From: Terriglobia bacterium
Lineage (GTDB): Bacteria; Acidobacteriota; Terriglobia; JAIQFV01
Length of the DNA stretch: 64,000 nt
Reading direction: 5' to 3'
Assembly: GCA_020073085.1 (NCBI GenBank)
Contig: JAIQFV010000009.1
Coordinates: 124,162 to 188,161 of the forward strand
The translations under genes and the position numbers were made by a program. Numbering within the stretch: position 1 is the stretch's first letter; each line of letters starts with the position of its first letter. Of the stretch, positions 10,318-63,325 are shown one piece after another. Under the pieces are notes generated by a model. It was not told the origin of the DNA, made no database searches, and saw only the letters and a program-made list of their open reading frames with translations.

Positions 10318-10600
10318 CTGAAGAGTCCCAAGTCCAAGGTCCCAAGTCCCAAGTCCAAAGTCCAAGGTCCCAAGTCGAGGGTTCCAAGTTCAGAGTTTCA
10401 AGTTCAAAGTTGAGAGCCCTCGAATCCACATTCAGAGATAATCCTCACCTTGTATCCGACGTCCGGTTCCTGAATTCGGACTTCTGACCTCGGACTTCTG
10501 ACTTCCGGCTCTCGACGTCCAGCACGCGACTTCCGCCCTCCGGCCTCTGGCTTCTCCCTCCCGGCTTCCCCTCCCCTCAACTATTCTCCCTCATTCTCTC
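10318..10600. repeat. low-complexity penta/hexamer-periodic intergenic repeat block with inverted symmetry
   Basis: ccaagtccaaggtcccaagtcc... followed by cggacttctgacctcggacttctgac... and ctccggcctctggcttc. Confidence 0.7.
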
Positions 10601-16718: not shown

Positions 16719-16955
16719 GAGAACCTCAAAGAATATCGCGAGACTTCGATTATCAACCATCCATTGAGACAAACTCGAAATTTTGCCACTCTGTGGTGAG
16801 CTAGCCCTCTTCACCCTTCAAGGAAGGAATCCGGATGATAGACCGAGGTCCTTGAATTTGCAACGGCTTTTCGGAGAAGCAGATGTCAGTGACCAGTGGC
16901 CAGTGGCTCATCTGAAACTTTGAACCTTGAACTTGGAACTTTGAACTCTTTCCTC

Positions 16956-17816: not shown

Positions 17817-17829
17817 CTTCCTTTAACAA

Positions 17830-17995
17830 TCAAAACTCCAAATCCCAATATCCAAAATCCAAATAAATTCCAAATTCCAGTGTCCAAATTCCAAACAAGC
17901 TCCCAGTGCCAAGCGCCAATGAGCCCAGCGAGTTTCTTTCTTGGAATTTGGTCTTTGGAGTTTATTTGGATTTTGGATATTGGAATTTGGGGTTT
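17830..17995. repeat. long inverted repeat of low-complexity sequence (about 50-bp arms)
   Basis: cccaatatccaaaatccaaataaattccaaattcca versus ttggaatttggtctttggagtttatttggattttggatattggaatttgg (reverse-complementary). Confidence 0.8.
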
Positions 17996-28022: not shown

Positions 28023-30662
28023 ATGACTCTCCCTCGTAGATTGTTGGTTGCGGTGATCGTTTCCATCATATCAGGAATGGTGCCGACTCATGCAAGTGAT
28101 AATTCAGCGGTCAAGCCGGCCCCCCGGGCAGCCCCTTCCCGGGATGCAAACGTCACCGCGTGGACACTGGCTAACGGTCTCGCGGTTGTTCACATCCGGA
28201 AGCCCTCTTCGAAAGTGCTGGCTTCGATTGTCACGATTAACGTCGGCTCCAAGGATGAAAAAAGTGAGACCAGCGGACTCTCGCATCTGCTCGAGCACAT
28301 GGTCTTCGACGGGACACAGCGGCGCAGCCGGGCTGAGATTAACGAGGGCTCCAAACGCTATGGAGGGTACGTCAACGCCACTACGCGGGCTGGATTCACG
28401 TGCTACCTCTCCATCTTCCCGTCCGAGTTCGCGGAGCTGTCACTTGACCTCCAGGGTGACATGCTCTTTCATTCCACGATTCCCTCGCAGGAACTGGAAA
28501 AGGAGCGCAAGGTTGTCATCGAGGAAATGAAGAAAGACCGCGATTCACCGGTCACCCGGGCCGCCGAATTCCACGACGAGCTGCTTTTTCAAGGGACAGC
28601 CTATGCCCGGCCCGTGCTGGGTTTTGAGCAGACCATCGCGTCGGTCCCCCGGTCGACGGTCCTCACCTACTATCAGCAGCACTATGTTCCCTCACGCATG
28701 AAAGCGATGATCATCAGCCCATTCCCGGCCTCCGAAGTCAAAAAGTGGATGGATAAGACATTTGGGACGGCCGGTTCTCCCGGCGCATCCGTGAAAGGAG
28801 CATCCCGGTGGACTTTTCCCACAGCCGGGGCGCCGCAGTACAAGGAAGAAGAGGTGCCCGCGGCCTACCTCGAGATATCCCTGCCCGCTCCAGCACTGGG
28901 GGACTCCGATTACTTCGCCTATGACCTGCTGTCGCGCTATCTCGCGGAGGGAGGGGCTTCCCCACTCCAACGGGCCCTCCGCATGGTGCGTCCGCCGCTG
29001 GTCGATAGCGTGAGCGCGGATTTGAACACGGAGGATACATTCTCAATCTGGAAAATTTCCATGGTCACACAACCCGGCCAGATTCCCGATGTGCTTGAAA
29101 GCTTGCGTCGCACCCTGCAAACCCTCGCCACCACCGGAATCCCTGCAGAGGAGATGCCCCGACTCCAGCGCCAGGTGCTTTCACAGGAAGCCATCCTGTC
29201 GGAGCAGGCCATGTACTACGGATTCCTCAAGGCGCCTTATATGAATGCCAAAGGGTACTCATTCGTCGCCACCTATCCCGAGCGGCTTCGCGGCGTCACA
29301 CCTGAGGCGGTGCGAAGAGTGGCAGAAAAATACTTCGCTAACCCGGTCTTCTTCATAACCGCCCTTGTTCCCAAGGGCAAGATTCCTCCTATCGAACCTG
29401 CAGGCGACGCCCATGCGTGGAAAAAGGAAACACTGCCCAACGGCGTGACGCTGATTGCGAAAGGGAGTGACGAATCCGATGTTTTTGCGATGAGCCTGTT
29501 CACGCGCCAGCGCTCCGCCCTCGAACCGCAGGATCTGGAAGGGATTTCTGATTTCGTTCAGCGCATGCTGCTCAAAGGCACAGCTTCCCGAAGCGAGGAG
29601 GCCATTCAAAAGGAACTGGACGATCTTTCGGCCCAAATTCAATTTGTCGACAACCCGTTCATTCCTTATGACGATGCCTGGACCACAAACCGCTTCAACT
29701 TCTTCCGCCTGGAAGCGCTGGATGAACTGCGGGGCCGTGCACTGGACTTGATGGGCGATGTGATTGCCAATGCCAACTTTCCCGACGCGCAAGTCGCCAA
29801 GGTGCGCGAGGAAATCGTCCGGCTTCAAACGCGGGAGGCCGACAATTCCTCGAAACGAGCCGTCCAGCGCCTCCATAATCTGCTCTTGGCTTCAACCCCG
29901 TACAGCCGGACGATTCTTGGAAGCGAGGGATCCATCCGAAAGATCAACCGCGAGTCGCTGATCGAACACTATAGACACATGTACGCCCCCTCCAATCTGG
30001 TGGTGATTGCCGCAGGCAAGGGAACTACCGCTGGGGTCCTGCGCGATCTCAGGTCGCGCTTCGAGAGTCTGAAGGGGGACGGTGTAAACCTTTCTGTGAC
30101 ACCTCCGACGCCTCGCACCAACTTTCTCTCGGAGAAAATTACCGTCAACAAGCAGCAGACCCAGATTGCAGCCGGGACGCTGGCGGCCGGTTGGAATTCA
30201 CCGGATGCGGCTGCCCTGCGCGTGTTGAATTCCGTCCTTTCGGAGCGGCTGGCGGTGGATCTGCGAGAAAAGCAGGGACTGGCTTACTCCGTAGGTTCGG
30301 ATCTACAGCAGGAACGCGACTACGGTTGGATCGAAGTTCGGATGGGCACGCGTGCCGAGGCCGCTGAACAAGCCCGCGAGGGGTTGCTGGCCGTGGTGCG
30401 TAAACTGGCGGGCGGCGAGATCTCGGCCGAGGAGCGCGAGCGGGCGATCAACGGCATGTGGGGCAGCCTCTTGCGCCAACGGTTGTCACGCATCGGCCAG
30501 ACTTTCTATCGCGGGATCGACGAAGTCCGCGGCTCGGGTTATGACGCCGAAGATCGATTATTGGCGTCATTGAAAGCCGTCACCCTGGAAGACCTGAGAC
30601 GCGTCGCGGGCGAGGCCTTGAATACCAATCGCTGGGTCATGGTGTCAGTGGGAAAGAATTGA
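28023..30662 (+). CDS. M16 (pitrilysin/insulinase) family zinc metallopeptidase, double-unit
   Basis: Signal peptide MTLPRRLLVAVIVSIISGMV. Inverted zinc motif HLLEHMVFDG. About 880 aa with two M16 + M16_C halves. Confidence 0.85.
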   Translation: MTLPRRLLVAVIVSIISGMVPTHASDNSAVKPAPRAAPSRDANVTAWTLANGLAVVHIRKPSSKVLASIVTINVGSKDEKSETSGLSHLLEHMVFDGTQRRSRAEINEGSKRYGGYVNATTRAGFTCYLSIFPSEFAELSLDLQGDMLFHSTIPSQELEKERKVVIEEMKKDRDSPVTRAAEFHDELLFQGTAYARPVLGFEQTIASVPRSTVLTYYQQHYVPSRMKAMIISPFPASEVKKWMDKTFGTAGSPGASVKGASRWTFPTAGAPQYKEEEVPAAYLEISLPAPALGDSDYFAYDLLSRYLAEGGASPLQRALRMVRPPLVDSVSADLNTEDTFSIWKISMVTQPGQIPDVLESLRRTLQTLATTGIPAEEMPRLQRQVLSQEAILSEQAMYYGFLKAPYMNAKGYSFVATYPERLRGVTPEAVRRVAEKYFANPVFFITALVPKGKIPPIEPAGDAHAWKKETLPNGVTLIAKGSDESDVFAMSLFTRQRSALEPQDLEGISDFVQRMLLKGTASRSEEAIQKELDDLSAQIQFVDNPFIPYDDAWTTNRFNFFRLEALDELRGRALDLMGDVIANANFPDAQVAKVREEIVRLQTREADNSSKRAVQRLHNLLLASTPYSRTILGSEGSIRKINRESLIEHYRHMYAPSNLVVIAAGKGTTAGVLRDLRSRFESLKGDGVNLSVTPPTPRTNFLSEKITVNKQQTQIAAGTLAAGWNSPDAAALRVLNSVLSERLAVDLREKQGLAYSVGSDLQQERDYGWIEVRMGTRAEAAEQAREGLLAVVRKLAGGEISAEERERAINGMWGSLLRQRLSRIGQTFYRGIDEVRGSGYDAEDRLLASLKAVTLEDLRRVAGEALNTNRWVMVSVGKN

Positions 30663-30667
30663 AGCTT

Positions 30668-30706
30668 TGGTAGCCCCGCCTGCGTTTTTTGCCGGCGGGG
30701 GCTCTT
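30668..30706 (+). terminator. GC hairpin downstream of the M16 peptidase gene
   Basis: gccccgcc-tgcgttttttgcc-ggcgggggc immediately after the stop codon. It is a truncated copy of the structured repeat family seen at 35-38 kb. Confidence 0.35.
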
Positions 30707-31192
30707 GGGCGAGGTTGGCAGAAGAAAACATGATCAAAGAGGTGGGACTCAGACATTGGCAATTTCAAGAATTAAGCATGAAGAAAAACACCTTGGGTTA
30801 GACTCGTCGAGGGACCAACTCCGAGACAAAATTTCAAATGAGAAGGTCTGTCACCGCAAATTCTAGACCCCTAGCAATGGAGAAGATGACGAGCTGGATT
30901 AAATTCGTGCGGATGCACGGAGCCCGACTCCTGCTGCTTGGCGTTCTTCTCACCGCTTGCTGGTTTATCGCGATCAAAGCGTTTGAAGGGTTGTTTATTT
31001 ATCTGTTTGCGATTAGCGACTCGGTTAGTCGGACACGGATAATGGTTAATCGTCACCCGAACGTTTTCAGAATTATCCTACGTCCTGGCCTGATGCCGAT
31101 TGCGTTTGACCAGCGGTTCCAGAGCCTGAGGGCCTAGCAGGAAGTTGTTCAACCGCGTCGTTCCCGGTGTCTAATCCCAGATCAAGGACTGT

Positions 31193-31735
31193 ATGCGCCA
31201 AGAAATCCAGTTTCGTAAGGTATTACCCATCGCGCAGACGATTCTGGCCTTGCTCTTTGCCGGGTTGGGTCTTTGGCAGCGGAACCAGATCCTAAGTCAC
31301 TCATGGTTTGGATGGAACTCCACCGCACGGTTTCACGTTTGGCCATGGCCATTCAAATATGCGGTGGTGTCAAATACACCTGCATTTCTGGCGGGCATGC
31401 TCCTTTCCTGGCCCGTCGATTCTTTGTGGCCGAGACTCCCCGAACCGATTCAAATCTCGCTCGCACTCCCCTTCATCCCGATCCTCTGGTATTGGGTCGG
31501 TTCGCGACTGGATCGAAAGTGGGGCGCTGTGGAGGGCACGAGGATATCGCGACGCCGTAGCCGATGGGTATTCATTTTGATCTTCACATTAGTCTGCATG
31601 ATGGGGGCCTATCTCCCATCTCGGTACTTGGGCTACGTGGGGTACCTGTATTACGGCATAGTTGTCTGGGTAGCTACGCCTCTCATCCTGCACCGTTTCT
31701 CAACAATTCGCCCGGACGGTTCATTAATAAACTGA
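31193..31735 (+). CDS. hypothetical membrane protein (AT-rich islet)
   Basis: 180 aa, multiple Trp-rich TM segments. Confidence 0.4.
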   Translation: MRQEIQFRKVLPIAQTILALLFAGLGLWQRNQILSHSWFGWNSTARFHVWPWPFKYAVVSNTPAFLAGMLLSWPVDSLWPRLPEPIQISLALPFIPILWYWVGSRLDRKWGAVEGTRISRRRSRWVFILIFTLVCMMGAYLPSRYLGYVGYLYYGIVVWVATPLILHRFSTIRPDGSLIN

Positions 31736-31774
31736 AGCTCGCCTGCGTCCTTATGGATGATTGATGTGAAAATA

Positions 31775-31845
31775 AAAGGGGCCACACCTGGACATAGGAC
31801 AGAAACGCAGAGAGCGAAGGGCGATTCCCTAAGCCGATTGACAAG
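31775..31845. repeat. direct repeat R1 in AT-rich islet
   Basis: ggccacacctggacataggacagaaacgcagagagcgaagggcgattccctaagccgattgacaagaa is about 75% identical to R2. Confidence 0.6.
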
Positions 31846-31848
31846 AAT

Positions 31849-32298
31849 GTGGAAGGCAACGCTGAAATACAAAATGCAAAGACACGACCCCAAAAAATTA
31901 TGGATCCCATAAAACAAGCTGATGGAATCATTCAATTCATGAATCAAAACGATTTCCTGATGAGGAATTATGTGGGATTTGTCACTTTAGGAGAAGCCGC
32001 GAGCGTTAATCGCTATTTTGATACAGGAAACCAAGTATCTTTCAAGCTTCTGCGCGATGCACACGACAAAGTAGTTGAACGACTCAATACAGTGAGGGCG
32101 TACTATATCAATGCCACTGTGAAGGGTAGTGCTGTTGTAGAAGAGGATTCAGAATTGCTTTTGGGTATTCAGGCTGCAGACATTTCGGTAGGAATTGCAT
32201 CGCGAATTTATGAGAGGCATCCTAAAAGCAGAATCGACGGAGCAAAAGCCGTTAAGGATGTATTCACAAGGGTGTTACTTAATGATCATTGGCTTTAA
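31849..32298 (+). CDS. hypothetical protein (AT-rich islet)
   Basis: 149-aa ORF directly after direct repeat R1. No recognisable domain. Confidence 0.35.
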   Translation: MEGNAEIQNAKTRPQKIMDPIKQADGIIQFMNQNDFLMRNYVGFVTLGEAASVNRYFDTGNQVSFKLLRDAHDKVVERLNTVRAYYINATVKGSAVVEEDSELLLGIQAADISVGIASRIYERHPKSRIDGAKAVKDVFTRVLLNDHWL

Positions 32299-32390
32299 CA
32301 TGATATTCGCTCGACTTCCCGCAATGCGAAGCATAGCCTTTTTTCTGGTTGCGTTGGCTTTAGATCCTGATCCCCCATCCCTATAGTGAG

Positions 32391-32801
32391 ATGCGCGTAA
32401 CAGTTCACTGGAAATCTCTTAAGGAAGGCGATGACGGCTGGGGACAGATCCGCTGCCTGTATGCGGTCCTCGGGCGCGGAAAAGAGATCCTCTACATAGG
32501 GAAGTGCTGGGGCAAGACTGTCCGCGAGCGGTGGACCCGGTCCGGAAAGCCAGACTTCTGGGATGAGATTGAGCAGGAACGGGGCATAAAAAAGCACGCT
32601 CTTCTGGTGGGCACCGTTGAGATGGATCGTTCGAGGAGGCTTACACACTGGCTCTTGATGGACATTGAAAGCCTGCTTATCATCTGCGAGCAGCCGTGGG
32701 GAAACAGGCAGAGCAAGAAATCAAGGATTCCAAGGCCGGGGCTAATTGTTAAGTGCGTCGGAACCTGGCCAAGCAAAACAAAGACATATCGGGACATCTG
32801 A
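32391..32801 (+). CDS. GIY-YIG nuclease-domain protein
   Basis: CLYAVLGRGKEILYIGKCWGKTVRERW: Y-x10-YIG-x7-R-x2-W spacing matches the GIY-YIG core. Downstream E (ICEQPW) and N are at the expected positions. Confidence 0.5.
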   Translation: MRVTVHWKSLKEGDDGWGQIRCLYAVLGRGKEILYIGKCWGKTVRERWTRSGKPDFWDEIEQERGIKKHALLVGTVEMDRSRRLTHWLLMDIESLLIICEQPWGNRQSKKSRIPRPGLIVKCVGTWPSKTKTYRDI

Positions 32802-32817
32802 AAATTTCATCAGGAAG

Positions 32818-32895
32818 ATAAAAGGCGTTACACCTGGGCATAGGACAGAGACGTGGCGAGCGGAGCGGCGATTTCCAAAGCGGATTGATGGCGAG
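32818..32895. repeat. direct repeat R2 in AT-rich islet
   Basis: cgttacacctgggcataggacagagacgtggcgagcggagcggcgatttccaaagcggattgatggcgag. Confidence 0.6.
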
Positions 32896-33084
32896 CGCCT
32901 TGGCCAAGAAAATCACCGCGGAGAGAGATAGTCCCGTGGGCAAGGGAATCCCTGGTTTTCAGGAACGGACAGACTCAGACCCTGCCCTGCGTGCGCTCTT
33001 GCAAAGGGCCAGCTCCACTTTGCCCTATGTCCAGGTGCGAGCCCATGTTCACCATGTTCAAGAACCGTATAAAGGAGAAAGACA

Positions 33085-33647
33085 TGAAATACACGAAGGC
33101 ATTTATCGCGGCAATTTGGTGCTGCAGTTTTCTCTCTTCCGTTGCTGGGATCATGGCTCAAGACAAACAGCTAGCTACGATTAAGAAGAAAGACGGACAA
33201 CAAATCGAAGGAGAGATAAAAGGTGTTATCGTCCAAAAGGAGACTATCAAAGAATGGACGGAGGGCTCCAAAAAGCACTACAACGTGCTCTACTACCTTA
33301 CCAACGGCAGTGACATCCGTGCCATCGATGAGAAGGGTGTCCACGTTCCCGAGGGGACTCAGATCCCAACACGCTTTGTCACGCAGAAAGGCAAGCCTCC
33401 AGATGATCTTGAGGTCTTGCAGGTTGCAGAAGACAAGAAGTCTTTAATACCAACAACAAAGGCGGGAGGCCAAGTACTAAGGGCTGGCATGGCAGCGACT
33501 GGTGTAAGCGCCGCAATGCTCCTCGGCGAACTGAGGACAAAAGATGGCAAAACAGGTCTAATTGGCGCCTTGGAGATCCAGACTACAAGCGGTCTGATTT
33601 CCATTCCGGTTGGCGAAATTATCGACTTCACACAAAAGGAAAAGTGA
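33085..33647 (+). CDS. hypothetical secreted protein
   Basis: Signal peptide MKYTKAFIAAIWCCSFLSSVAGIMA. Confidence 0.45.
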
Positions 33648-33736
33648 AGTATGAAAGGGGATAAGCAAGTAGGGTGAGACAATGTCGGTGCCCGACCCAA
33701 TCAATTGAAATAAAGCCGGACACAAGGAGGCAGACC

Positions 33737-34456
33737 ATGTCACTCAAAAAACTCGCTTTCATCATTCTCATGATTCTCCTGATGACGACAGTTTCCGCGG
33801 GCCAGACCGACATTCTTCAGCAACTCGGCCTCGGGAAAAAGCAGTCATTAAGCGATGCCAAGATTGGAGCGGGACTCAAGGAGGCACTTCAGGTCGGCAC
33901 AGGGAATGCCGTCAAGACCACCGGCCGCCTGGATGGTTACTTCAAGAACGAAGCCATCAAGATTCTGATGCCCAAGCAGCTTCAGACGATGGAAAAAGGA
34001 TTGCGCATGGTCGGCTACGGGCCGCAGCTGGATGAATTTGTTCTCAGCATGAATCGCGCCGCTGAGGCTGCTGCGCCTCAGGCGAAGGCCATTTTTCTCA
34101 ATGCCATCCGTAACATGACGCTTACTGATGTCCGGAAAATCTTCACCGGCGGTGACACCGCGGCCACGGAATATTTCAAAGAACAAACCACGGATCAACT
34201 GACTACCGCGTTTTCTCCGATCGTCCAAAAGTCCATGAACGAGGTGGGCGTCACCCGGCAGTACAAGGAGTTGATGGGACGATTTCAATCGATCCCCTTC
34301 GCCAGGACCCAGGCCTTTGACATTGACAAGTATGTTGTCGGAAAAGCCCTGGACGGACTGTTCTTCGTGGTCGGAGAAGAAGAGCGCAAAATTCGAAAAA
34401 ATCCCGCTGCCCAGGTGACGAGCCTGTTGCGAGAGGTATTCGGCAGGAAACAGTGA
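33737..34456 (+). CDS. secreted DUF4197-like protein
   Basis: Signal peptide [21 protein letters not shown]. Body resembles the DUF4197 family (weak recollection). Confidence 0.4.
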
Positions 34457-34669
34457 TTGATTTGCAGCAAGTGGGTTCAGACCGGGACAGTGGACAAATC
34501 CTCGCTTCTTCTGCGAAAAGGAGGATTCGGGTAAAGGTTTCTCACCAACCGTTTAGTTCCGGCGAGGACGAGTGGGGCGGTGACCCACGGACCATGGGTG
34601 TCCGTAGCCCGAGCGTGTGAGAATCGTTCAACGTCCCCCACCCTGAGCGGCTTAACCACCTGAAGCCCG

Positions 34670-34954
34670 TCATTTAATTGTTCGAAGCAAGTTCTCAAAT
34701 CCGACCCCGGCGCCGGCATAGAGCAGAGAAACGGGTTTTTCGTTTCTGAGAAGATCAATGACATTATGGAAGTCATCGAGATGGTAATACAGCGTGGGCT
34801 GGCCGCCCACCAGACCATCCTGAGGGAGCGCTGATCCATTGGGCATGAAGATGGCTTGGCCGATATATTTGCCTGCGGCCTTGAGCGCGATTTTCGGGTG
34901 ATAGGTGTTCGACGAATAGAATACTTCGTACGCGTCGATCTTCGTCAGTGGCAT
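34670..34954 (-). CDS. hypothetical protein
   Basis: 94-aa ORF. Confidence 0.35.
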   Translation of the reverse strand: MPLTKIDAYEVFYSSNTYHPKIALKAAGKYIGQAIFMPNGSALPQDGLVGGQPTLYYHLDDFHNVIDLLRNEKPVSLLYAGAGVGFENLLRTIK

Positions 34955-35114
34955 AAGTTATCTCCTTGGTCTTTGATGAACGAACAGAAGAAACACGGCC
35001 AGCCGCGGGGGATCTCAACGACATGGAGAAGGTCCGCGAGCTGTTGACCAAATCAATATGCCAGAAAACGGAATGAAACAGCTACCCAAACCTTCTTCGA
35101 GGGGGACGCGGGGT

Positions 35115-35520
35115 GGAAATGCCCCCGCCATAAAAACGTGCCGGGGCCACCCAAACCTTTCCGAAAAGCAATGTTTTGGTAGCCTCGCCGGCGCTTTCTG
35201 CCGGCGGGGGCTCTTCAGGATTGCGGCACCTTTGCTGATTCCTTCCCGACTGCGACCAACTGCCCCCGCCACAAAAACGTGGCGGGGCTACCAAACCTTT
35301 TCCGAAGGGCAATGTTTTGGTAGCCTCGCCGGCGCGTTTTGCCGGCGGGGGCTCTTCGGGTTTGCGTGAACCTAATCTGATCTTTGCCTGGTTGCTACGA
35401 ATTGCCCCCGCCACAAGAACGTGGCGGGGCTACCAAACCTTTTCCGAAGGGCAATGTTTTGGTAGCCTCGCCGGCGCGTTTTGCCGGCGGGGGCTTTTCG
35501 GGTTGGCGGGGCTACCAGAG
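35115..35520. repeat. tandem array 1 of structured palindromic repeat (3 units of about 140 bp, each containing 3 hairpins)
   Basis: Unit = tgcccccgccacaaaaacgtggcggggc (10-bp stem), then gctaccaaa...tttggtagc, then cgccggcgcgttttgccggcgg, closed by ggcgggggc. Three consecutive near-identical copies. Confidence 0.85.
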
Positions 35521-35531
35521 CTTCATCGAGA

Positions 35532-36059
35532 ATGGCCGTGGATAAAAAGAAGAAACATCTCCTTTGGGTGATTGCCTTTGTCGGGGGATTCATCATCCTG
35601 ACGGGAATTCTGAGTGTCGGCTACATCAAAACAGAAGCCGTCATGAAGCCCCACATGGATGAACTTCTCACCGTTCCTTCGATGAAGGCCAAGCCGGATG
35701 AGGAGCCATACATTAAAGGCAAACTTCTCCCCATCGACCGAAGGAAAAAGAAAATCGACAGTTATATTTGGAGCGCGCTCCCCTCAATGCAGCTCGCTCA
35801 CCGGTATGAAGAGGTCCAGACGGTCATCCTCCTGGAGTACGGAGAATCGCAGGTCGGAACCTACACGAACGGAACCGGCGCCTACGTAAGGACCTGTGCG
35901 GTCACGATTATCGACTACTCGCGCGGTGTTGTTCTGGCCGCGAGGATTTTTTCGGGCTCGGCTCCCCCGGCGACAACGTCGAGCCATACCGGGGCGTACG
36001 GATCCAATCCCCGCACCGAAGTGGTGCAGTATCTAAAGAAACTGCCCAGGGCGGGATAA
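35532..36059 (+). CDS. hypothetical membrane-anchored protein
   Basis: MAVDKKKKHLLWVIAFVGGFIILTG N-terminal TM anchor. Lies between repeat arrays. Confidence 0.4.
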   Translation: MAVDKKKKHLLWVIAFVGGFIILTGILSVGYIKTEAVMKPHMDELLTVPSMKAKPDEEPYIKGKLLPIDRRKKKIDSYIWSALPSMQLAHRYEEVQTVILLEYGESQVGTYTNGTGAYVRTCAVTIIDYSRGVVLAARIFSGSAPPATTSSHTGAYGSNPRTEVVQYLKKLPRAG

Positions 36060-36450
36060 GCCATTTTGAAACAACTTTGGGTGGTGTGCCCAGCGGACTT
36101 CTGCCGGCCGCGACGGAATGCCCCCGCATTCAGAATGCGGAGAGGCGACCCTCACATCAGGTTCTTGATCGGAGTATTATCGGGAAGGAAAACCGGATGA
36201 GGGGTTTGTCTGGGAACCATTTCTTTGGAAGTCAGACCCATGAAAATTGACTATAAGAAAGTGATCCCCTTCACCGGATGGGTAAGCGTTCTGCTTATCT
36301 TGTGTATCTCCAAGTTTACGTCTGTTACACGGGATGGTTTTGTCCAAAGCACTCTCCTTGCCTGTCCGAGCATTACTTAGCCCATCGGTCGCAAGTAAGC
36401 GAGGGATTTTCCACGATTTCGCCCACAATCGCTGATTCCTTCCCAACCTC

Positions 36451-36748
36451 AACGAAGTGCCCCCGCCACAAAAACGTGGGGGGGCTACCAAACCTTTCCA
36501 GAAGGCAAAACTCGGGTGGCCTGCAATGAAATGCCCCCGCCACTAAAACGTGGCGGGGCTACCAAACCTTTCCAGAAGGCAAAACTCGGGTGGCCCGCAA
36601 CGAAATGCCCCCGCCACTAAACCGTGGCGGGGCTACCAAACCTTTCCAGAAGGCAAAACTCGGGTGGCCTGCAACGAAATGCCCCCGCCACTAAACCGTG
36701 GCGGGGCTACCAGACCTTTCCAGAGGGCAAAACTCGGGTGGCCTGCAA
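36451..36748. repeat. tandem array 2 of structured palindromic repeat (4 units of about 72 bp)
   Basis: Four near-identical copies of gaaatgcccccgccactaaaacgtggcggggctaccaaacctttccagaaggcaaaactcgggtggcctgcaac. Confidence 0.9.
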
Positions 36749-36833
36749 AATTCACGGGGCCAAATTTTTTCAATTTTCATTGTGAGGATTCCCACCCCTC
36801 GCCAGAACCGGCCGAAAGGATGGGGCACTCGCT

Positions 36834-37598
36834 CTAGTGGAATGTCACAGTGGTGCGCTGTTCGGCGCTCTTGTAGCCTGGGCCGTTGGCCACGGAGAGG
36901 GTGAACTCGCAGGTCCCCGAGGCATGCGACCCTACCTGCGAAACGGTGGTGCGGATAATCGCGGTCTGGGGGTCCATCTGCTTGCTGACCCGCGTAAACT
37001 GTGCCCCGCGGACGCCGCCTCCGCCACAATCCAGCCCGTAGTTCACGCTCACCGGATCCCCGGGACCCAGCTTGCCGCCCTCATCCAGAACGACCAATTC
37101 GAGTTCCACCGCCGCGCCCGAGCTTGTCGCCGAGAGGATCTTGAAACTCTTGATCACAGGCACATAGGGAACCAGGACAATGGTCTCCGTCTTGGAATCG
37201 CCACCAGGCGTTTTCAGCAAGACGGAGCGCTCGCCGGCCGGGGTCCCTGGAGCCACCGTGAGCTGGAACTCCCACAGTTTGGCCCCTTTTCGGATCCGGC
37301 GGCCGGGTTCGAGAGCCTTCTCTCGAATGCCTTCGACCGTGAGGCCATCGGCAGGAGTAATGACAACACTCTGAAGAGGGCCGTGCGCGCCGAGCACTTC
37401 CAGGGGCGTCGTCTTGCCAATCACGGCCTGGGGCTTGTACCCGAAGAACGAAAGATCGTTGGAAGCAGCGGCGGCGCTTGCCGCCAGCAACCCCATCGCG
37501 ATCCATATCGAGGTAAACCAGAGGCCGAGCCGGGAGGGTCCTTGTTTCACGGCTTCATGACCCATTTGGGGGTGATGGGAAAGCGCAAGAATCTTCAT
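36834..37598 (-). CDS. secreted hypothetical protein, paralog A
   Basis: Signal peptide (MKILALSHH...WIAMGLLAASAAAAS). Shares a motif skeleton with paralog B (TPLEVLG..SVVITPADGLTVEGI / SVLLKTPGGDS / DCGGGG / SGTCEFTLSV). Confidence 0.5.
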   Translation of the reverse strand: MKILALSHHPQMGHEAVKQGPSRLGLWFTSIWIAMGLLAASAAAASNDLSFFGYKPQAVIGKTTPLEVLGAHGPLQSVVITPADGLTVEGIREKALEPGRRIRKGAKLWEFQLTVAPGTPAGERSVLLKTPGGDSKTETIVLVPYVPVIKSFKILSATSSGAAVELELVVLDEGGKLGPGDPVSVNYGLDCGGGGVRGAQFTRVSKQMDPQTAIIRTTVSQVGSHASGTCEFTLSVANGPGYKSAEQRTTVTFH

Positions 37599-37742
37599 TG
37601 GAATCTCCTTCTTGAGATTTGCTTCGTTCGTATCGCCCGTGACCAATTTCCACGCGCCAAAACTCCACTCCGAACAAACGAATGAGTAATGCCGTGCCAT
37701 CTTGGCAATTGCCGCCTTTCGAGATGAACTACCTTCCCAAGC

Positions 37743-37950
37743 GCAACGAAGTGCCCCCGCCACTAAAACGTGGCGGGGCTACCAAACCTTTCTAGAAGGC
37801 CAAACTCCGGTGGCCTGCAACGAAGTGCCCCCGCCACTAAAACGTGGCGGGGCTACCAAACCTTTCTAGAAGGCCAAACTCCGGCGGCCTGCAACGAAGT
37901 GCCCCCGCCACTAAAACGTGGCGGGGCTACCAAACCTTTCCGAAAGGTAA
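37743..37950. repeat. tandem array 3 of structured palindromic repeat (3 units of about 72 bp)
   Basis: Three near-identical copies of gcaacgaagtgcccccgccactaaaacgtggcggggctaccaaacctttctagaaggccaaactccggtggcct. Confidence 0.9.
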
Positions 37951-37952
37951 TG

Positions 37953-38693
37953 CTAGGGTAACTTCTCCGGCGCGAACTCAACGGGCACGGTGAGTTTGTT
38001 GCTTTCCGAAGTACTTCCCCCCTGATCATCATGGATCAGAAAAACCTCCAGGATGCATGTCCCGCTTGCGGAGACTTTCTGCAATTGACTTGAAAAGCTC
38101 TGCGTTGCATAGAAGACACTATTCTTGGGATCCTTCATGACAACCTTGTCCGGCTCGTGAAAACCGACTCCGTGACCGTCCCCGCATTGCAAGTGGTAAT
38201 TACACAGGGCAGCTTTTGGAGAGGTGATGTCACCCGCCGGGTCAAAGACTGAGAAACGAATCTTCAATCGCGCATCGACTGGTTCGGCTGAAAGAACAGT
38301 GAGGTTGCTGATGCGGGGAACATGGTCGGGAATATAGAGGGCCTTCGGATTCGAGCTTCCATCCGGGGTGATCACGGCAATTGACCGTTTCCCGGTATGA
38401 GCCCTCGGTTCGGCAAAGACCCGTACGGACCAGACCTTGATTCCCTCGCCCTGCTGTCTGCGATCATCGGGATCCGGTGTGCTCTCCTTGACATCACGAA
38501 CGGAAACACCTTCGGCAGGAGAGACTTCAACGGATGTCACTTGAAGATTTTTCCCAAAGCACTTGAACTCAGTCGTTTGTCCCCGTATCACCTGCAGATC
38601 GGAGTAGCCCGAGAATTGGACGTCAATTTTCTCGGCCTTCTGAACTCCTGTGATGAAAATCAATACGGCGATGGCCCACCCTACCCTTCTCAT
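37953..38693 (-). CDS. secreted hypothetical protein, paralog B
   Basis: Signal peptide MRRVGWAIAVLIFITGVQKA. Motifs TTEFKCFG..VTSVEVSPAEGVSVRDV / SIAVITPDGSS / QCGDGHG / SGTCILEVFL parallel paralog A. Confidence 0.5.
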   Translation of the reverse strand: MRRVGWAIAVLIFITGVQKAEKIDVQFSGYSDLQVIRGQTTEFKCFGKNLQVTSVEVSPAEGVSVRDVKESTPDPDDRRQQGEGIKVWSVRVFAEPRAHTGKRSIAVITPDGSSNPKALYIPDHVPRISNLTVLSAEPVDARLKIRFSVFDPAGDITSPKAALCNYHLQCGDGHGVGFHEPDKVVMKDPKNSVFYATQSFSSQLQKVSASGTCILEVFLIHDDQGGSTSESNKLTVPVEFAPEKLP

Positions 38694-38809
38694 GGTGACA
38701 CCTCCTTGACCGTCGGTTCCGAAGAAAAGGAACCGGATCGGGACTGCAGACAATTTCTAGGGTGCCCGTGCAAGGAACAAGGCCAGGGGGTGACCTTCTT
38801 TGAATTCTC

Positions 38810-39475
38810 CTATCTCGGCAGTCGAATCACTCGTCCATCCGGCGTCGTGACCGTGCCTTTTCCCCGGAGGTAAATATACCCCTTGTCTTTGTCGACCCTG
38901 AAGACCAGCGGCCAGCCGGGATCGCCCTCGAAGATGTGATCCTGGACCGTATGCCTTCCAATCCAGGTATGCTTCACGCCGTGAGCCCAAAGCACCGGAC
39001 GCAGTTGTCCATCGGGCCCCATACGAAAGGTGACGTTTCCTTCCAGGCGCGATCCGCCCCCAGGAATCGAACTGATCTGAATCTCTCCACGGTCAGGCTC
39101 AAGGTAACGGTCGATCAGCCGTTCATCCTGTAGCGCAAAACTCGGCTTCATTAAGACCGGAAGAAGCGCCGCCAACTGATGGGCGGTCTTTTGAGCGATT
39201 GTGCTCTGTGAGAGATTCACAAACATGAATAGAGCAAGCCACACCCCCAACACGGAGAAAAGCCCCCATTTCAGGGAGCGTATCACATTCGAATGCTGCG
39301 GTCGTGACTTCTCCGCCTTCCCTTCAGCCAGTTGCTGTGCTTGTCGCTGGAGCGCCAGTTTCTCTTCGTTCGGCAGCGCATCGAAACAGATCGTGCAGAT
39401 TAACGGACTCAGGTATCCATCTTCCTGAAAGTAGTAAATCGAAGGATAAACAGTGCCGCATCGCTCGCATTTCAT
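38810..39475 (-). CDS. zinc-ribbon / single-TM hypothetical protein
   Basis: MKCERCG...CTIC N-terminal zinc ribbon, central TM helix, C-terminal beta-rich domain. Confidence 0.5.
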   Translation of the reverse strand: MKCERCGTVYPSIYYFQEDGYLSPLICTICFDALPNEEKLALQRQAQQLAEGKAEKSRPQHSNVIRSLKWGLFSVLGVWLALFMFVNLSQSTIAQKTAHQLAALLPVLMKPSFALQDERLIDRYLEPDRGEIQISSIPGGGSRLEGNVTFRMGPDGQLRPVLWAHGVKHTWIGRHTVQDHIFEGDPGWPLVFRVDKDKGYIYLRGKGTVTTPDGRVIRLPR

Positions 39476-58125: not shown

Positions 58126-58340
58126 AAGAATTCAATCACACTTTCTTTAGGTGTTTCTGAGTTTTGGTAACCCCGGTCCGCCGCGGCATCCGCCATTATT
58201 GCCGGCGGATCGCCGGCGGATTTTCGGGTTTTGGCAGCCCCGGCGAGCCCGCCGCGGCGGGCCGGGGGATAATCACGCGGTCTCACGGAAGCCCCGGTTT
58301 GCCATGGCGGACATCTGGTCAACTCGGTACCGAACATTCC

Positions 58341-60965
58341 TCACTCTCTTGCATGGACGGCTTCACGTGACATTTCCTTTCCCGTCCCGCCCTCCCAGGG
58401 AGGCTTAACACGGACGGGTTCCGGCCAATCCACCTCAGGAACGGACTTGGGCCCATAACGGTGCGGTTCTTCGACCCCCCGGGTAATGCCTGTTCCTCTG
58501 CTGTCGGTCGATTCCACGTCATCTTCCTGTCTTTCGGCCCCCTTCTGAATCGCAGACAAAACCTTGTCGGGAGTGATGGGGACCTCATCAATGCGCACCT
58601 GGACCGCATCATAAACCGCGTTGGCAATGGCGGGCGGGACCGGCAGCAAGGGTCCCTGTCCGACTTCCTTGGCGCCGAAAGGGCCGTTGGGATCCGGATC
58701 TTCAATCAGAAATGTCTTCACGTCGCACATTTCCAGCGTCGTGGGCGATTTGTATTCGAGGAGGCTGGGGAATTTGTGCACGACATTCCGATTCGCCCGG
58801 TAACTCATTTCTTCCATCAGAGCCTCACCCAATCCCATGTAGACCGACCCCTCCACCTGTCCCAAGGTCAAGGCCGGATTAATGGCGCGTCCGATATCGT
58901 GCGCCATCCAGATTCGCTCCACCCGCACAATCCCGGTGCGCGGGTCCACCTCGACCTCGGCGACCGCCGCATCGTAACTGTATGCCGGAGAGGGACCGAC
59001 ACCCGCTCCCTTGTATCTTCCCGCTGAGGGAGGCGGCGTATAACTGCCGACGGTCCCAATCGTTCCGAACCTGGCCTCGGCGATTTGAACCGCCTCGGCG
59101 AATGAGATGGACGTCTCGGGATTCTCCACATCGAATAACCGGCCCCCGGAAAAGGAAAGATGAGTGGCGGGAATGTTCATTTTTTCCGAAACCGCGCGGA
59201 CGAGAAGGTCCCGGGCGCGTTCAGCTGCCTCCAGCGCCGCATTCCCCGTCATCAGCGTCACCCGGGAGGAATAACTCCCAAGATCAACAGGAGTGAGATC
59301 AGTGTCCGCCGTGAGGACTCGAATGTCGAAGGGATCAATCCCGAATACCTCGGCAACAAGGTAGGCGAGGATCGAATCGGAACCCTGTCCAATGTCGATC
59401 GATCCACACATCACGCACACACCGCCTTGACGGTCCAGCCGGAGCTGCACCCCGGAATGCGGCATGTGATTCCAATAAATGGGAAGTCCGGCGCCACTCA
59501 GGTAGGACGCACAGGCCAGCCCTATGCCTTTTCCGTAAGGGAGGTTTCGGAATTTGTTCTTAAAGTCGCTCGCCGTGACCACCTTGTCGAGACACGCGGC
59601 CAGCCCCATCGAGCCAACCCTCAAGTAATTTGCGGTAAGCGAATGGGGCTCCACCAGATGGTTCTTGCGAATTGCCACTGGATCGAGCCGCAACTGCTCC
59701 GCAATCTTGTCGAGATGAATCTCGAGGGCATAGCGGGGTTGCGGCGTTCCGTGGCCGCGCTTGGGTCCGCAGGGCGGCTTGTTGGTAAACACACGGACGC
59801 CTTCGAACTTGTAATTCGGAATTTTGTAGGTCACCGTCTGCAACGCCCCCGTGTAATAGGTGGAGGCAACCCCATAACTGCCGTAAGCCCCGCCGTCGAG
59901 GAAGGAGCGGAAATGCATCGCCGTGATCGCGCCGTCCTTCTTTGCCCCCGTCTTCACCCACATGAGCACGGGATGTCGTCCCCGGTGGCAATAAAACACC
60001 TCTTCCCGCGTGAGGGTTACTTTCACGGGGCGGCCCGTTATCATGGCAAGTTTTGAGACAATCATCTCGTGGGGAAATGGGTCACTCTTGCCGCCAAAGC
60101 CGCCTCCATTGGGCGTGGCGATGACCCGGATACGGCTGGCAGGCATTTCCAGTACTTTTGCGAGCGCCCGGTGGACATAATGCGGGGTCTGCGTGGAGCT
60201 CCATAAACAGAGCTTGCCGTCGCCGTCCACCTGGGCCACGGCGGCGTGCTGCTCCATGGGAAGGTGCGTATTGCCTTCGTAAAAGAATACATCTTCCCGA
60301 ACCAAATCGGCCTGTTTGAATCCTTCTTCCACGTCGCCAAACTCCAAGGCCACCATCTTGTGAACATTGCCGTGATCCCCATAGCTGTGGATGCGCCAGG
60401 CCTCTTTGCACTCTCCGGGATTCTCGGAGCCGCCGGTCTTTGAAAGTCCATCTCCGGTGCGCAGAGATTCAGGATTTCTCAATGCATCCTGTATCGAGGA
60501 AACGACAGGCAGAGGTTCGTATTCCACTTCGATGGCGTTCATGGCTTCAAACGCCGAATCCTCGTCGATGGCAGCAACAGCGGCAACCGGATCACCAATC
60601 ATGCGGACCTTCTCGAGGCACAGCGCGTGCTCGTCCTGGCTGACCGGTAATATGCCGTAGGGGAGGGGGAGGGACTTCCCCGTAATGACCGCGACCACAC
60701 CGGGCATCGCCTCAGCCTTCGACGTGTCAATTTTTCGAATCAGGGCATGGGGGACGTGACTGCGCAGGATTTTACAGTAGAGCATCCGCGGCAACACGAT
60801 GTCGTCGGCAAATTTCGTTTGCCCGGTTACCTTGGCCGAGGCATCGATCTTGCGAAGCGGCTTGCCGACAACGTTGAGATGTTTTGAGCTTCCGTTCTTC
60901 ATGAGATAAACCGCAAAAGGTTTGGTAGCCGTGATCCCGTTCTTTAGGATCGCGGGCTTTTCCAC
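58341..60965 (-). CDS. hcrA: molybdopterin-binding large subunit of xanthine-dehydrogenase-family enzyme (HcrA/CoxL-like)
   Basis: VGKPLRKIDASAKVTGQTKFADD N-terminus, aldehyde oxidase/xanthine dehydrogenase a/b hammerhead and MoCo-binding body. Alternative start MKNGSS at 60902. About 70-aa unusual C-terminal extension. Confidence 0.85.
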   Translation of the reverse strand: MEKPAILKNGITATKPFAVYLMKNGSSKHLNVVGKPLRKIDASAKVTGQTKFADDIVLPRMLYCKILRSHVPHALIRKIDTSKAEAMPGVVAVITGKSLPLPYGILPVSQDEHALCLEKVRMIGDPVAAVAAIDEDSAFEAMNAIEVEYEPLPVVSSIQDALRNPESLRTGDGLSKTGGSENPGECKEAWRIHSYGDHGNVHKMVALEFGDVEEGFKQADLVREDVFFYEGNTHLPMEQHAAVAQVDGDGKLCLWSSTQTPHYVHRALAKVLEMPASRIRVIATPNGGGFGGKSDPFPHEMIVSKLAMITGRPVKVTLTREEVFYCHRGRHPVLMWVKTGAKKDGAITAMHFRSFLDGGAYGSYGVASTYYTGALQTVTYKIPNYKFEGVRVFTNKPPCGPKRGHGTPQPRYALEIHLDKIAEQLRLDPVAIRKNHLVEPHSLTANYLRVGSMGLAACLDKVVTASDFKNKFRNLPYGKGIGLACASYLSGAGLPIYWNHMPHSGVQLRLDRQGGVCVMCGSIDIGQGSDSILAYLVAEVFGIDPFDIRVLTADTDLTPVDLGSYSSRVTLMTGNAALEAAERARDLLVRAVSEKMNIPATHLSFSGGRLFDVENPETSISFAEAVQIAEARFGTIGTVGSYTPPPSAGRYKGAGVGPSPAYSYDAAVAEVEVDPRTGIVRVERIWMAHDIGRAINPALTLGQVEGSVYMGLGEALMEEMSYRANRNVVHKFPSLLEYKSPTTLEMCDVKTFLIEDPDPNGPFGAKEVGQGPLLPVPPAIANAVYDAVQVRIDEVPITPDKVLSAIQKGAERQEDDVESTDSRGTGITRGVEEPHRYGPKSVPEVDWPEPVRVKPPWEGGTGKEMSREAVHARE

Positions 60966-61022: not shown

Positions 61023-61178
61023 GGCCTGGCTAAAGCCAGACCCTTACAAGGCCCTGTCTCTTCAATCCGTACACAACTTCCTCGGAGATACTGATTCAAA
61101 TCCACATGCTCATGATTTGGCTGAAGCCAGGCCCTTACAAGGGCTTTTCACTTCAATCCGTACACAACTTCCTCGCGG
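61023..61178. repeat. about 92-bp tandem duplication spanning the hcrC 3' end and the hcrC-hcrA spacer
   Basis: ggct(a/g)aagccag(a/g)cccttacaagg(c/g)c...cttcaatccgtacacaacttcctcg occurs twice. The second copy encodes the last 8 codons (EEVVYGLK*) of hcrC. Confidence 0.8.
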
Positions 61179-63189: not shown

Positions 63190-63310
63190 CGTCTTGATAC
63201 CGAAGCCAGAAGCGAGAAGCCGGACGCCAGAGGTCGGAAGTCAGAAGTCAGAGCTCAGAAATGAGACCACTAGGATCACAGTCTCTGGCTTCTGGCATCC
63301 GGCTTCTGGC
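63190..63310. repeat. inverted low-complexity repeat (gaagccagaagc / gcttctggcttc arms) between boxC-like and boxB-like
   Basis: gaagccagaagcgagaagccggacgccagaggtcggaagtcagaag ... ctctggcttctggcatccggcttctggcgtcc. Confidence 0.8.
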
Positions 63311-63325
63311 GTCCATTGAATACCT

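Follow-up and report, generated by a model that had tools for sequence, protein, structure and literature searches.

To our knowledge, REP and REPIN systems have been studied almost entirely in Proteobacteria. The BIMEs in which some REPs are combined bind IHF, gyrase and Pol I. GTAG-tagged REPs have stems of 5–13 bp, the spacers of their inverted dimers measure 20–100 bp, and the head-to-tail arrangement, which is that of two arrays described here, is rare among REP dimers (Di Nocera, De Gregorio & Rocco, 2013; PMC3733652). A survey described GTAG REPs from Proteobacteria, Cyanobacteria, Chloroflexi and the PVC group, and for Acidobacteria only TIR-flanked Y1 transposases (PMC3733652).

We analysed a 64-kb stretch of DNA (64,000 nucleotides in all, hereafter the window) from an uncultured soil acidobacterium of the Terriglobia (Acidobacteriota), and we put at about three in four the probability that its three tandem arrays are clusters of a GTAG-tagged REP family, a known kind of element that has apparently not been catalogued in Acidobacteriota before. 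The REP/BIME-like reading, one of several proposed in the initial annotation, is supported by an invariant GGTAG tag beside a covarying stem-loop, by the occurrence of singletons, inverted doublets and tandem clusters, by extragenic positions, and by variability between relatives. TRF located the three arrays of one repeat family where they had first been placed (Table 1), with periods of 142 and 74 bp instead of the earlier approximations of 140 and 72 bp. With up to three mismatches allowed, the core GCCCCCGCCAC-N6-GTGGCGGGGC occurs 10 times in the window, always on the plus strand, against 0.02 occurrences expected by chance.

Table 1. REP copies, tandem arrays and neighbouring genes in the window, by position
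Feature	Position	Strand	Evidence or context
Singleton REP, second palindrome type	30661..30709	+	Best model match in window, 64.6 bits, E 5.6e-14
Conserved 94-aa protein gene, function unknown	34670..34954	-	ORF; array 1 lies 128-160 nt upstream of start
Degenerate REP head ggtttGGGTAGc	35082..35094	-	Weak model match 35062-35094, 9.7 bits
REP1 copies, array 1	35114-35159 (degenerate, 33 bits), 35255-35300, 35397-35442	-	Model matches
Array 1	35116-35509	.	TRF: period 142 bp, 2.8 copies, 87% matches
REP2 copies, array 1	35170-35218, 35311-35359, 35453-35501	+	Model matches
Half REP1 (3' arm + head, GGCGGGGCTACCAGAGC), closes array 1	35504..35524	-	Sequence; weak model match 35466-35524, 14.6 bits
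175-aa membrane-anchored hypothetical protein gene	35532..36059	+	ORF; gene call in L123; directly downstream of array 1
Array 2	36450-36748	-	TRF: period 74 bp, 4.0 copies, 95% matches
REP1 copies, array 2	36452-36497, 36526-36571, 36600-36645, 36674-36719	-	Model, 58.7-62.9 bits
254-aa secreted hypothetical protein (NCBI LAO21_11565)	36834..37598	-	Array 3 upstream, array 2 downstream
Array 3	37743-37940	-	TRF: period 74 bp, 2.7 copies, 99% matches
REP1 copies, array 3	37746-37791, 37820-37865, 37894-37939	-	Model, 61.7 bits
266-aa paralog of 254-aa protein	37953..38753	-	ORF; array 3 after stop codon
Possible diverged REP family member, intergenic	58225..58276	+	Weak model match only, 10.3 bits, E 0.74
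Singleton REP	60916..60964	+	Model match, 53.7 bits

Read on the opposite strand, each core begins with GGTAG and continues as a GC stem-loop of 9–10 bp, which is the signature of GTAG-tagged REPs. The basic module of about 45 nt comprises a fixed head, (T/C)T(T/C)TGGTAGCC, a GC-rich stem of 9–11 bp, a T-rich loop of 4–9 nt and then GGGGGC(T/A). Two stem types occur in the arrays of the window, REP1 (CCCCGCCAC) and REP2 (CCTCGCCGGCG); the core stem, first described as 10 bp long, was recovered with a paired length of 9–10 bp, CCCCGCCAC(G)/(T)GTGGCGGGG. A tRNA-like minihelix, with a stem followed by ...CTACCA, was also considered and rejected: ARAGORN found no tRNA or tmRNA, and GGTAG on the opposite strand is the better reading of this motif.

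Twenty distinct copies, taken from the window, the Terriglobia MAG SRVP_39 and metagenome contigs, were aligned. The GGTAGCC head is invariant (20/20), and 94% of the cells of the 10-bp stem are paired, compared with 49–64% in slid controls. The covariance analysis suggested earlier revealed compensatory changes on both sides in seven of the 10 stem pairs, a number reached by none of 500 shuffles. A covariance model (R1) was built for the REP and used to scan the window and related loci in place of a simpler GGTAG-plus-hairpin pattern, which was too lax (16 matches versus 13 in shuffles). In the window it found 15 strong copies, distributed over five loci that are each situated between called genes, with none in positions 1–30,600 and no further REP copy in the extra flank (the adjoining 7.5 kb on the left and 2.5 kb on the right). 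Copy density in the window is modest and clumped.

Stable hairpins and a covarying stem would also be found in a hairpin selected as RNA, either as tandem small structured RNA genes or as a cis-regulatory RNA repeated in 3' or 5' UTRs, and transcription of the upstream paralogs would include arrays 2 and 3 in sense orientation. However, covariation is equally expected of DNA hairpins, and the invariant part of the module is its unpaired GGTAG head, as is typical of a DNA recognition site. There are no Rfam matches at gathering scores in the whole window, nor any at E<=1 in 30000–39000; promoter-like sites are unenriched, and none lies ahead of any unit. In addition, the copies face either way with respect to genes, some lie in a divergent promoter region, and the unit number varies between near-identical genomes, with arrays missing beside orthologous genes. 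The tandem structured sRNAs envisaged in the initial annotation thus find no support (no Rfam match, no promoter enrichment, mixed orientation and unstable unit number), and we regard selection of the hairpin as RNA as very unlikely; the REP hairpins imply no separate RNA gene.

The internal structure of array 1 is that of a REP cluster. Each 142-bp unit runs from REP1 (GTAG strand minus) through a 27-nt spacer, the ends of which are mutually complementary, to REP2 (GTAG strand plus), followed by a variable linker of 43 nt, so that REP1 and REP2, with their different stem sequences, alternate in inverted orientation. The additional stems reported for the long unit are real, as its first ~95 nt are predicted to form one long hairpin (RNA fold, -66.7 kcal/mol, z -4.4; DNA fold, -37.7 kcal/mol, z -5.1). 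Any neighbouring REP pair in array 1 is able to fold in this way, and single long hairpins were obtained as DNA for both the GTAG-inside doublet (105 nt, -35.8 kcal/mol, z -6.4) and the GTAG-outside doublet (132 nt, -36.2 kcal/mol, z -5.9). An identity above 90% over the whole unit, as claimed for all arrays, does not apply to array 1, in which the palindrome-bearing ~100 nt are 86–97% identical and the 43-nt linkers 66%; conserved palindromes among diverged linkers are the mosaic pattern of REP clusters.

The 74-bp unit of arrays 2 and 3 lacks REP2 and the linker but otherwise aligns to both ends of the 142-bp unit. It contains REP1, the spacer and a stub of REP2, which in array 2 is a degenerate head, GGTGGCC; the two arrays are a REP1-only derivative. 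They have no spacers and consist of same-orientation head-to-tail repeats, and the linkers of array 1 share homology among themselves and with the sequences that flank arrays 2 and 3 and a locus in MAG SRVP_39 (L002), so the reported absence of unique spacers stands. A CRISPR array was rejected on the spacer-free structure of arrays 2 and 3, the homology of the array 1 linkers and the lack of cas-like domains in the neighbour genes.

Outside the arrays, complete singletons occupy two of the five loci in the window. The family is organised as singletons (30661, 60916), inverted heterodimers and tandem clusters (arrays 1–3). The first singleton, ctttGGTAG-CCCCGCCTGCG-ttttt-TGCCGGCGGGG-GCTCTTGGG, had been taken for a truncated copy at 30668–30706 and is in fact complete and of the second palindrome type; its GGTAG head lies 6 nt past the TGA stop (30660–30662), on the sense strand, of a peptidase gene in which a domain search found M16 domains. 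The second has the same 15-nt head (AAAGGTTTGGTAGCC) with a different compensated stem, CCGTGATCC/GGATCGCGG, and belongs to a xanthine/CO-dehydrogenase-type operon, where it separates the Fer2 gene from the molybdopterin subunit gene and is antisense to both. This full copy had been overlooked before, as had the weak one at 58225–58276 (ttttGGCAG-CCCCGGCGAGCCCGCC-GCG-GCGGGCCGGGGG).

The arrays differ in their genic context. Array 1 is placed between divergently transcribed genes, the products of which have no Pfam match; homologs of the 94-aa protein, 60–68% identical, occur in several phyla. The degenerate head upstream of this gene marks the junction between its conserved promoter region and the repeat cluster, and homology to a repeat-free ortholog locus (L154) stops exactly there. 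Array 2 lies between convergent genes and ends 86 nt past the stop of the 254-aa gene (36834), on its sense strand; array 3 ends 12 nt past the stop of the 266-aa gene (37953), likewise in sense, with the 254-aa gene ~145 nt downstream. The two secreted proteins are 29% identical in amino acids (E 6e-25), in agreement with the earlier statement that arrays 2 and 3 each sit 3' of one of two paralogous genes.

With three loci beginning 6–86 nt past a stop codon in sense orientation, and with three array-2 hairpins passing a lax terminator scan on the minus strand, the copies might be ordinary terminators or attenuators duplicated in place, immobile and unrelated to REP systems. However, they have no real U-tract (tails GCTCTTGGG, GCACTTCGTT), and the number of terminator-like sites (12) equals that in shuffles (12.0). 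Array 1 separates two divergent gene starts, and the 60916 copy is located within an operon on the antisense strand. As unlinked sites and other genomes contain the same module of head and stem, with compensated changes in the stem, duplication in place is inadequate, and we consider such an origin highly improbable.

The REP family is present at several unlinked intergenic sites of the window and in related genomes. A strict scan for the core pattern gave one match among 185,579 species representatives, a related Terriglobia MAG. REP copies were also found in loci L001 and L002 of the Terriglobia MAG SRVP_39: model R1 detected at least nine copies in 8 kb of L001, complete single palindromes included, and this more distant MAG has a single doublet at nearly the site of array 1, upstream of the 94-aa gene. 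A metagenome scan with the loose pattern GGTAGCCYCGCC-N8-16-GGCGGGGG was dominated by an unrelated conserved gut-type locus and chance matches; among the matches listed, only four soil metagenome contigs (L018, L058, L061 and L092) belong to the family, and viral contigs gave no match. Doublets, all of them inverted heterodimers, were seen only at array 1, L002 and L092.

Unit numbers vary among contigs that are 99.5–100% identical elsewhere, with two, three or four units in array 1, two, at least three or four in array 2, and one, two or three in array 3, all in short-read population contigs, in the assembly of which tandem repeats can collapse. Array 1 is the break point of many short-read contigs. 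No REP copy was found near the 254-aa gene's orthologs (88%, 83% and 69% identical), or upstream of a 90% ortholog of the 94-aa gene, so that the presence/absence comparison proposed at the outset yielded both arrays absent beside close orthologs and unit numbers differing between near-identical contigs. In two relatives (L139 and L142), the sequence on either side of the 254-aa gene is rearranged, with homology ending at positions 36777 and 37633 of the window, so that neither offers a clean empty site for arrays 2 and 3. The arrays had been described as far less diverged than the paralogs, and this is confirmed by units 88–99% identical versus 29% amino acid identity; together with the absence of arrays at the 88%, 83% and 69% orthologs, these values support the view that the arrays formed long after the paralogs were duplicated.

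Differences in presence and absence among relatives are compatible with a MITE, which the initial annotation had proposed with a target preference for terminators. In its classical form, the doublet would be a non-autonomous cut-and-paste element with TIRs that depends on a DDE transposase and inserts close to terminators. The GTAG-outside doublets (35311–35442 in the window, 495–629 in L092) of ~130 bp indeed end in inverted repeats of 12–16 bp, TTTGGTAGCCYCGCC. However, no direct target-site duplications were found at the doublets or singletons examined, the flanks being inverted complements of each other, and complete single palindromes, which have one 'end', are dispersed alone (30661, 60916 and L001). 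The conserved end is GTAG plus a hairpin, a hallmark of HUH/Y1 substrates and not of DDE ends; no transposase gene of any kind lies near the REP copies in the window; and, of the five loci in the window, just three are placed 3' of a gene in sense orientation, which does not support a preference for terminators. We judge a MITE origin to be quite unlikely.

Scans for HUH...Y-x-NP motifs detected no RAYT/Y1 transposase in the window, in the ~10 kb of added flanking sequence or in the loci of the lineage, and tblastn against plasmids gave no acidobacterial match. The one RAYT that the scans did find, in L034, is Verrucomicrobia-like and unrelated; GTAGCC palindromes follow it, which is not evidence for the lineage studied here. 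Its homologs comprise 3763 RAYT-like proteins, none attributable to this lineage. Since the search was limited to the window, its flanks and the lineage loci, a RAYT-type enzyme mobilising the GGTAG palindromes is something that we infer.

For the GTAG-tagged REP family, we propose that the palindromes were dispersed as single-stranded DNA hairpins by a RAYT-type HUH/Y1 tyrosine transposase, which would recognise the GTAG tag and the stem, and that the clusters may then grow and shrink locally by unequal recombination or replication slippage between units. Where the GTAG strand is the sense strand of the upstream gene, read-through would give transcripts with one to four very stable hairpins on their 3' side, a situation that would fit the M16 gene and both paralogs. 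These hairpins could, by analogy with the REPs of enterobacteria, shield the upstream mRNA from 3' exonucleases or attenuate read-through. Alternatively, the REP system may be independent of a classical RAYT, being either mobilised by the Acidobacteria-specific TIR-associated Y1 transposases or kept by the host as tunable 3'-hairpin arrays, in which unit number might set the expression of lineage-specific secreted proteins. We think this unlikely; if true, it would make the Terriglobia elements a distinct REP branch and not one more family.

The arrays leave the current understanding of REP elements unchallenged. A clean GTAG-tagged family with doublets and unstable clusters would extend the documented range of REPs to a major soil phylum, and the REP covariance model is ready to be used for finding the partner transposase in acidobacterial MAGs. 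In practical terms, the clusters fragment short-read assemblies and coincide with breaks in synteny, which makes them relevant to MAG quality and to the typing of strains in the lineage.

The closest described system is the superfamily of GTAG-tagged REPs (Nunvar et al., 2010; PMC3733652), with which the Terriglobia family shares an unpaired GTAG tag beside a GC-rich stem with a short loop, subfamilies set apart by compensated stem changes, and extragenic positions, often just past stop codons. Also shared is the organisation as singletons, inverted dimers foldable as one hairpin, and tandem clusters reiterated with flanking DNA. It differs in its new consensus, with the longer conserved head TTTGGTAGCC, and in that no linked transposase was found in the window, flanks or lineage loci. 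Like the REPINs of Pseudomonas fluorescens SBW25 (Bertels & Rainey, 2011; PMC3116915), the Terriglobia doublets consist of two inverted REPs with a short spacer that form one long hairpin, and copies persist at the orthologous site in a diverged relative (here L002). However, the Terriglobia doublet is a heterodimer that combines two stem types, most of the arrays repeat a shortened unit head to tail, and no cognate single-copy RAYT was found in the window, flanks or lineage loci. By sequence, the family is not an enterobacterial REP (Y/Z), as blastn of the 145-nt unit against 5,426 E. coli genomes gave no match. A further difference from E. coli BIME-2 is that the repeats of arrays 2 and 3 share one orientation. 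In contrast, array 1 resembles BIME-2 in that two REP types alternate in orientation with two kinds of linker, in tandem clusters the unit number of which is variable between strains.

Three tandem arrays of the hairpin repeat were delineated in the window with Tandem Repeats Finder, and the core GCCCCCGCCAC-N6-GTGGCGGGGC occurs 10 times, on the + strand only, compared with 0.02 expected from shuffled sequences. The array periods and this enrichment bear out the arrays described in the initial annotation, subject to four corrections: periods of 142 and 74 bp replace 140 and 72 bp; identity above 90% throughout the units does not hold for array 1, in which about 100 nt with the palindromes are 86-97% identical and the 43-nt linkers 66%; the copy after the M16 peptidase gene, described as truncated, is a complete singleton under a covariance model; and a further full copy at 60916 had been missed. 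The model was built from an alignment of 20 distinct copies, and an unfiltered search of the window returned 15 strong matches. All strong copies and weak remnants lie between called genes, and no copy was detected by the model in the flanks of the window (7.5 kb left, 2.5 kb right).

Repeats and associated genes in the window (TRF, Tandem Repeats Finder; CM, covariance model; L-numbers, contigs from other samples or metagenomes)
Feature	Position	Strand	Description	Units per contig	Setting	GTAG strand
TPR-coding tandem repeat	3667-4358		102 bp x 6.8
Heptamer array	10324-10505		degenerate		intergenic
Heptamer array	16887-16947		degenerate		intergenic
Heptamer array	17828-17990		degenerate		intergenic
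Singleton	30661-30709	+	strong copy (CM)		GGTAG starts 6 nt past M16 peptidase gene stop	sense
94-aa gene	34670-34954	-
Weak remnant	35062-35094		CM
Array 1	35116-35509		period 142, 2.8 copies, 87% matches (TRF)	2: L127, L146, L147; 3: window; 4: L123	between starts of divergent 94-aa (-) and 175-aa (+) genes	not applicable
Weak remnant	35466-35524		CM
Array 2	36450-36748		period 74, 4.0 copies, 95% matches (TRF)	2: L123, L145-L147; at least 3: L149; 4: window	between convergent genes, 86 nt past stop of 254-aa gene	sense
254-aa gene	36834-37598	-	secreted paralog
Array 3	37743-37940		period 74, 2.7 copies, 99% matches (TRF)	1: L148; 2: L145; 3: window	12 nt past 266-aa paralog stop, ~145 nt before 254-aa gene start	sense
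266-aa gene	37953-38753	-	secreted paralog
REP1 copies in arrays		-	10 (CM)
REP2 copies in arrays		+	3 (CM)
Weak remnant	58225-58276		CM
Copy 60916	60916-60964	+	strong copy (CM)		within dehydrogenase operon	antisense
Direct repeat, ~45 nt	61025-61075, 61118-61160		ggctaaagccagacccttacaaggcc...tcttcaatccg		same intergenic region as copy 60916
Heptamer array	63202-63314		degenerate		intergenic

On the minus strand, all cores read as one repetitive extragenic palindrome, REP1 (aaaggtttGGTAG-CCCCGCCAC-gttttt-GTGGCGGGG-GCA), in which an unpaired GGTAG precedes a GC-rich stem-loop. REP2, the other hairpin in the 142-bp unit, has the same form in its plus-strand sequence (aatgttttGGTAG-CCTCGCCGGCG-cgttt-TGCCGGCGGGG-GCTCTTC). 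The unit therefore consists of REP1 (-) and REP2 (+), separated by 27 nt of spacer whose ends are complementary, followed by a 43-nt linker. The additional stems reported for this unit (gctaccaaa/tttggtagc and an outer closing stem) arise because the inverted REP1 and REP2 pair together, and the first ~95 nt form a single hairpin both as RNA (-66.7 kcal/mol, z -4.4) and as DNA (-37.7 kcal/mol, z -5.1). The alternative doublet, REP2-linker-REP1, has its GTAG tags on the outside and likewise forms one hairpin (-36.2 kcal/mol, z -5.9). In alignment, the 74-bp unit covers the two ends of the 142-bp unit (first ~57 nt, last ~12 nt); a stub, GGTGGCC, is what remains of REP2, and the linker is mostly missing.

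The hairpin repeat is a family and not a local oddity. A strict core-pattern scan of one genome per species matched only the Terriglobia MAG SRVP_39, of which one locus (L002) has the conserved 94-aa gene in common with the window (84.5% nucleotide identity) and carries one REP2-linker-REP1 doublet upstream of it, at nearly the same position. Another SRVP_39 locus (L001) holds nine or more copies, whose stems are of several kinds, and additional variants came from four metagenome contigs among the matches listed. Head (GGTAGCC) and tail (GGGC) are invariant in the 20 aligned copies, while 94% of cells in the 10-bp stem form standard pairs. Both sides have changed in 7 of the 10 pairs (e.g., GCCAC/GTGGC, GCCGGC/GCCGGC, GCTCCG/CGGAGC and GTGATCC/GGATCGC), values reached in none of 500 shuffles, and slid controls were 49-64% paired; the covariance analysis suggested initially thus found compensatory changes.

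Other identities were also considered. Rfam gave no match at gathering scores, nor at E<=1 over 30-39 kb, and no tRNA or tmRNA was predicted. Promoter-like and terminator-like sites were no more frequent than in shuffles, with a lax terminator rule passed only by three array 2 hairpins. A CRISPR-like array was rejected, as unique spacers are lacking, in agreement with the initial annotation, and cas-like neighbours are absent. No target-site direct duplications were observed beside the copies.

The window matches the NCBI MAG 'Acidobacteriia bacterium' (locus tag LAO21_11565), and outside the repeats the window sequence is 99.5-100% identical to contigs of other samples, with whole-unit differences within the repeats. 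L123 has one array 1 unit more, a recombinant between units 1 and 2, and array 1 is the end point of many short-read contigs. As short-read assemblers can collapse tandem repeats, real unit-number differences between these population contigs are suggested rather than proven. More robust is the absence of arrays in relatives, revealed by the comparison that the initial annotation had proposed: no copy whatsoever was found in contigs with orthologs of the 254-aa gene (L139, 88%; L144, 83%; L142, 69% identity), whose homology to the window ends at 36777 (~30 nt or less from array 2) and 37633 (~110 nt before array 3). Similarly, L154, with a 90% ortholog of the 94-aa gene, has no copy across 260 nt upstream, and its homology stops precisely at the start of a degenerate REP head (35081/35082, aacagc|tacccaaacc). 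The clusters are located at synteny breakpoints, and the unit-number differences and absences together indicate that they come and go over short evolutionary times. At the place of array 3, the close relative L139 carries a different short dispersed intergenic repeat (GGTCTGACCCC with flanks; 60-250 and 1050-1160).

The secreted paralogs are, as noted initially, more diverged than the repeats (29% identity, E 6e-25, vs 88-99% between units of arrays 2 and 3), so the arrays arose long after the gene duplication. The final few codons and TAG stop of the 266-aa gene (37950-37958) fall within a degenerate spacer/REP2-head remnant of the last array 3 unit, so this open reading frame may owe its end to the repeat. 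The paralog family is extremely narrow: a database of 5.8 billion proteins contains only 7 clusters that match the 254-aa protein, all apparently from close relatives. The 94-aa protein, strongly conserved and without a Pfam family, has counterparts of ~102 aa in MAGs of Geobacter, Casimicrobiaceae and Poribacteria, at 60-68% identity. In L001 (3007-6842), four tandem ORF6N/KilA-N-like paralogs alternate with REP copies and heptamer repeats and adjoin a HigB-like toxin-antitoxin pair.

The heptamer arrays (AGTCCCA/AGTTCAA, GAACTTT, AAATCCA and GAAGCCA types) are a second repeat family, common to the related MAG (L001, e.g., 2100-2130, 2470-2510 and 4360-4410). They are often paired in inverted orientation and could form a long hairpin (17828-17903 vs 17941-17990; 63202-63252 vs 63284-63314). 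The 102-bp repeat encodes TPR repeats of 34 residues in a Trypsin_2/TPR protein (L133 gene call).

The element is modular, a GGTAG with a hairpin of covarying stem, occurs singly, as inverted pairs and in tandem, is dispersed to unlinked intergenic sites and related genomes, and is gained and lost among relatives. By analogy with GTAG REPs (PMC3733652, PMC3116915, PMC6006769), we propose that a RAYT-type HUH/Y1 transposase would recognise GTAG plus hairpin on single-stranded DNA and disperse the module, that recombination or slippage among neighbouring units would then alter cluster length, and that sense-orientation copies, once transcribed, would form 3' hairpins on the upstream mRNA. The weak part of this scheme is the transposase, none having been found in the DNA of this lineage examined (window and loci). 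The sole RAYT encountered lies on an unrelated metagenome contig (L034, 1-600), Verrucomicrobia-like by homologs, followed by two GTAGCCGGCCGCGGTGAGGCCGGC palindromes (GTAGCC), a textbook REPtron end; it illustrates the expected arrangement and is no evidence for the Terriglobia genome of the window.

A specialist would be unsurprised by this family, and its value lies in offering an acidobacterial example that is tractable and in the effect that the clusters have on assemblies in practice. The repeat unit has no similarity in E. coli genomes and left viral contigs unmatched. The REP/BIME-like reading of the initial annotation holds structurally, in that the element conforms to the GTAG-tagged REP superfamily and to REPIN-like doublets; array 1 works like E. 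coli BIME-2, although a sequence relationship is absent. In a survey of tagged REPs from 2013 (PMC3733652), GTAG families were described for Proteobacteria, Cyanobacteria, Chloroflexi and the PVC group, and for Acidobacteria only TIR-flanked Y1 transposases; the present family therefore appears to be a new one of an already known type, in an under-sampled phylum.
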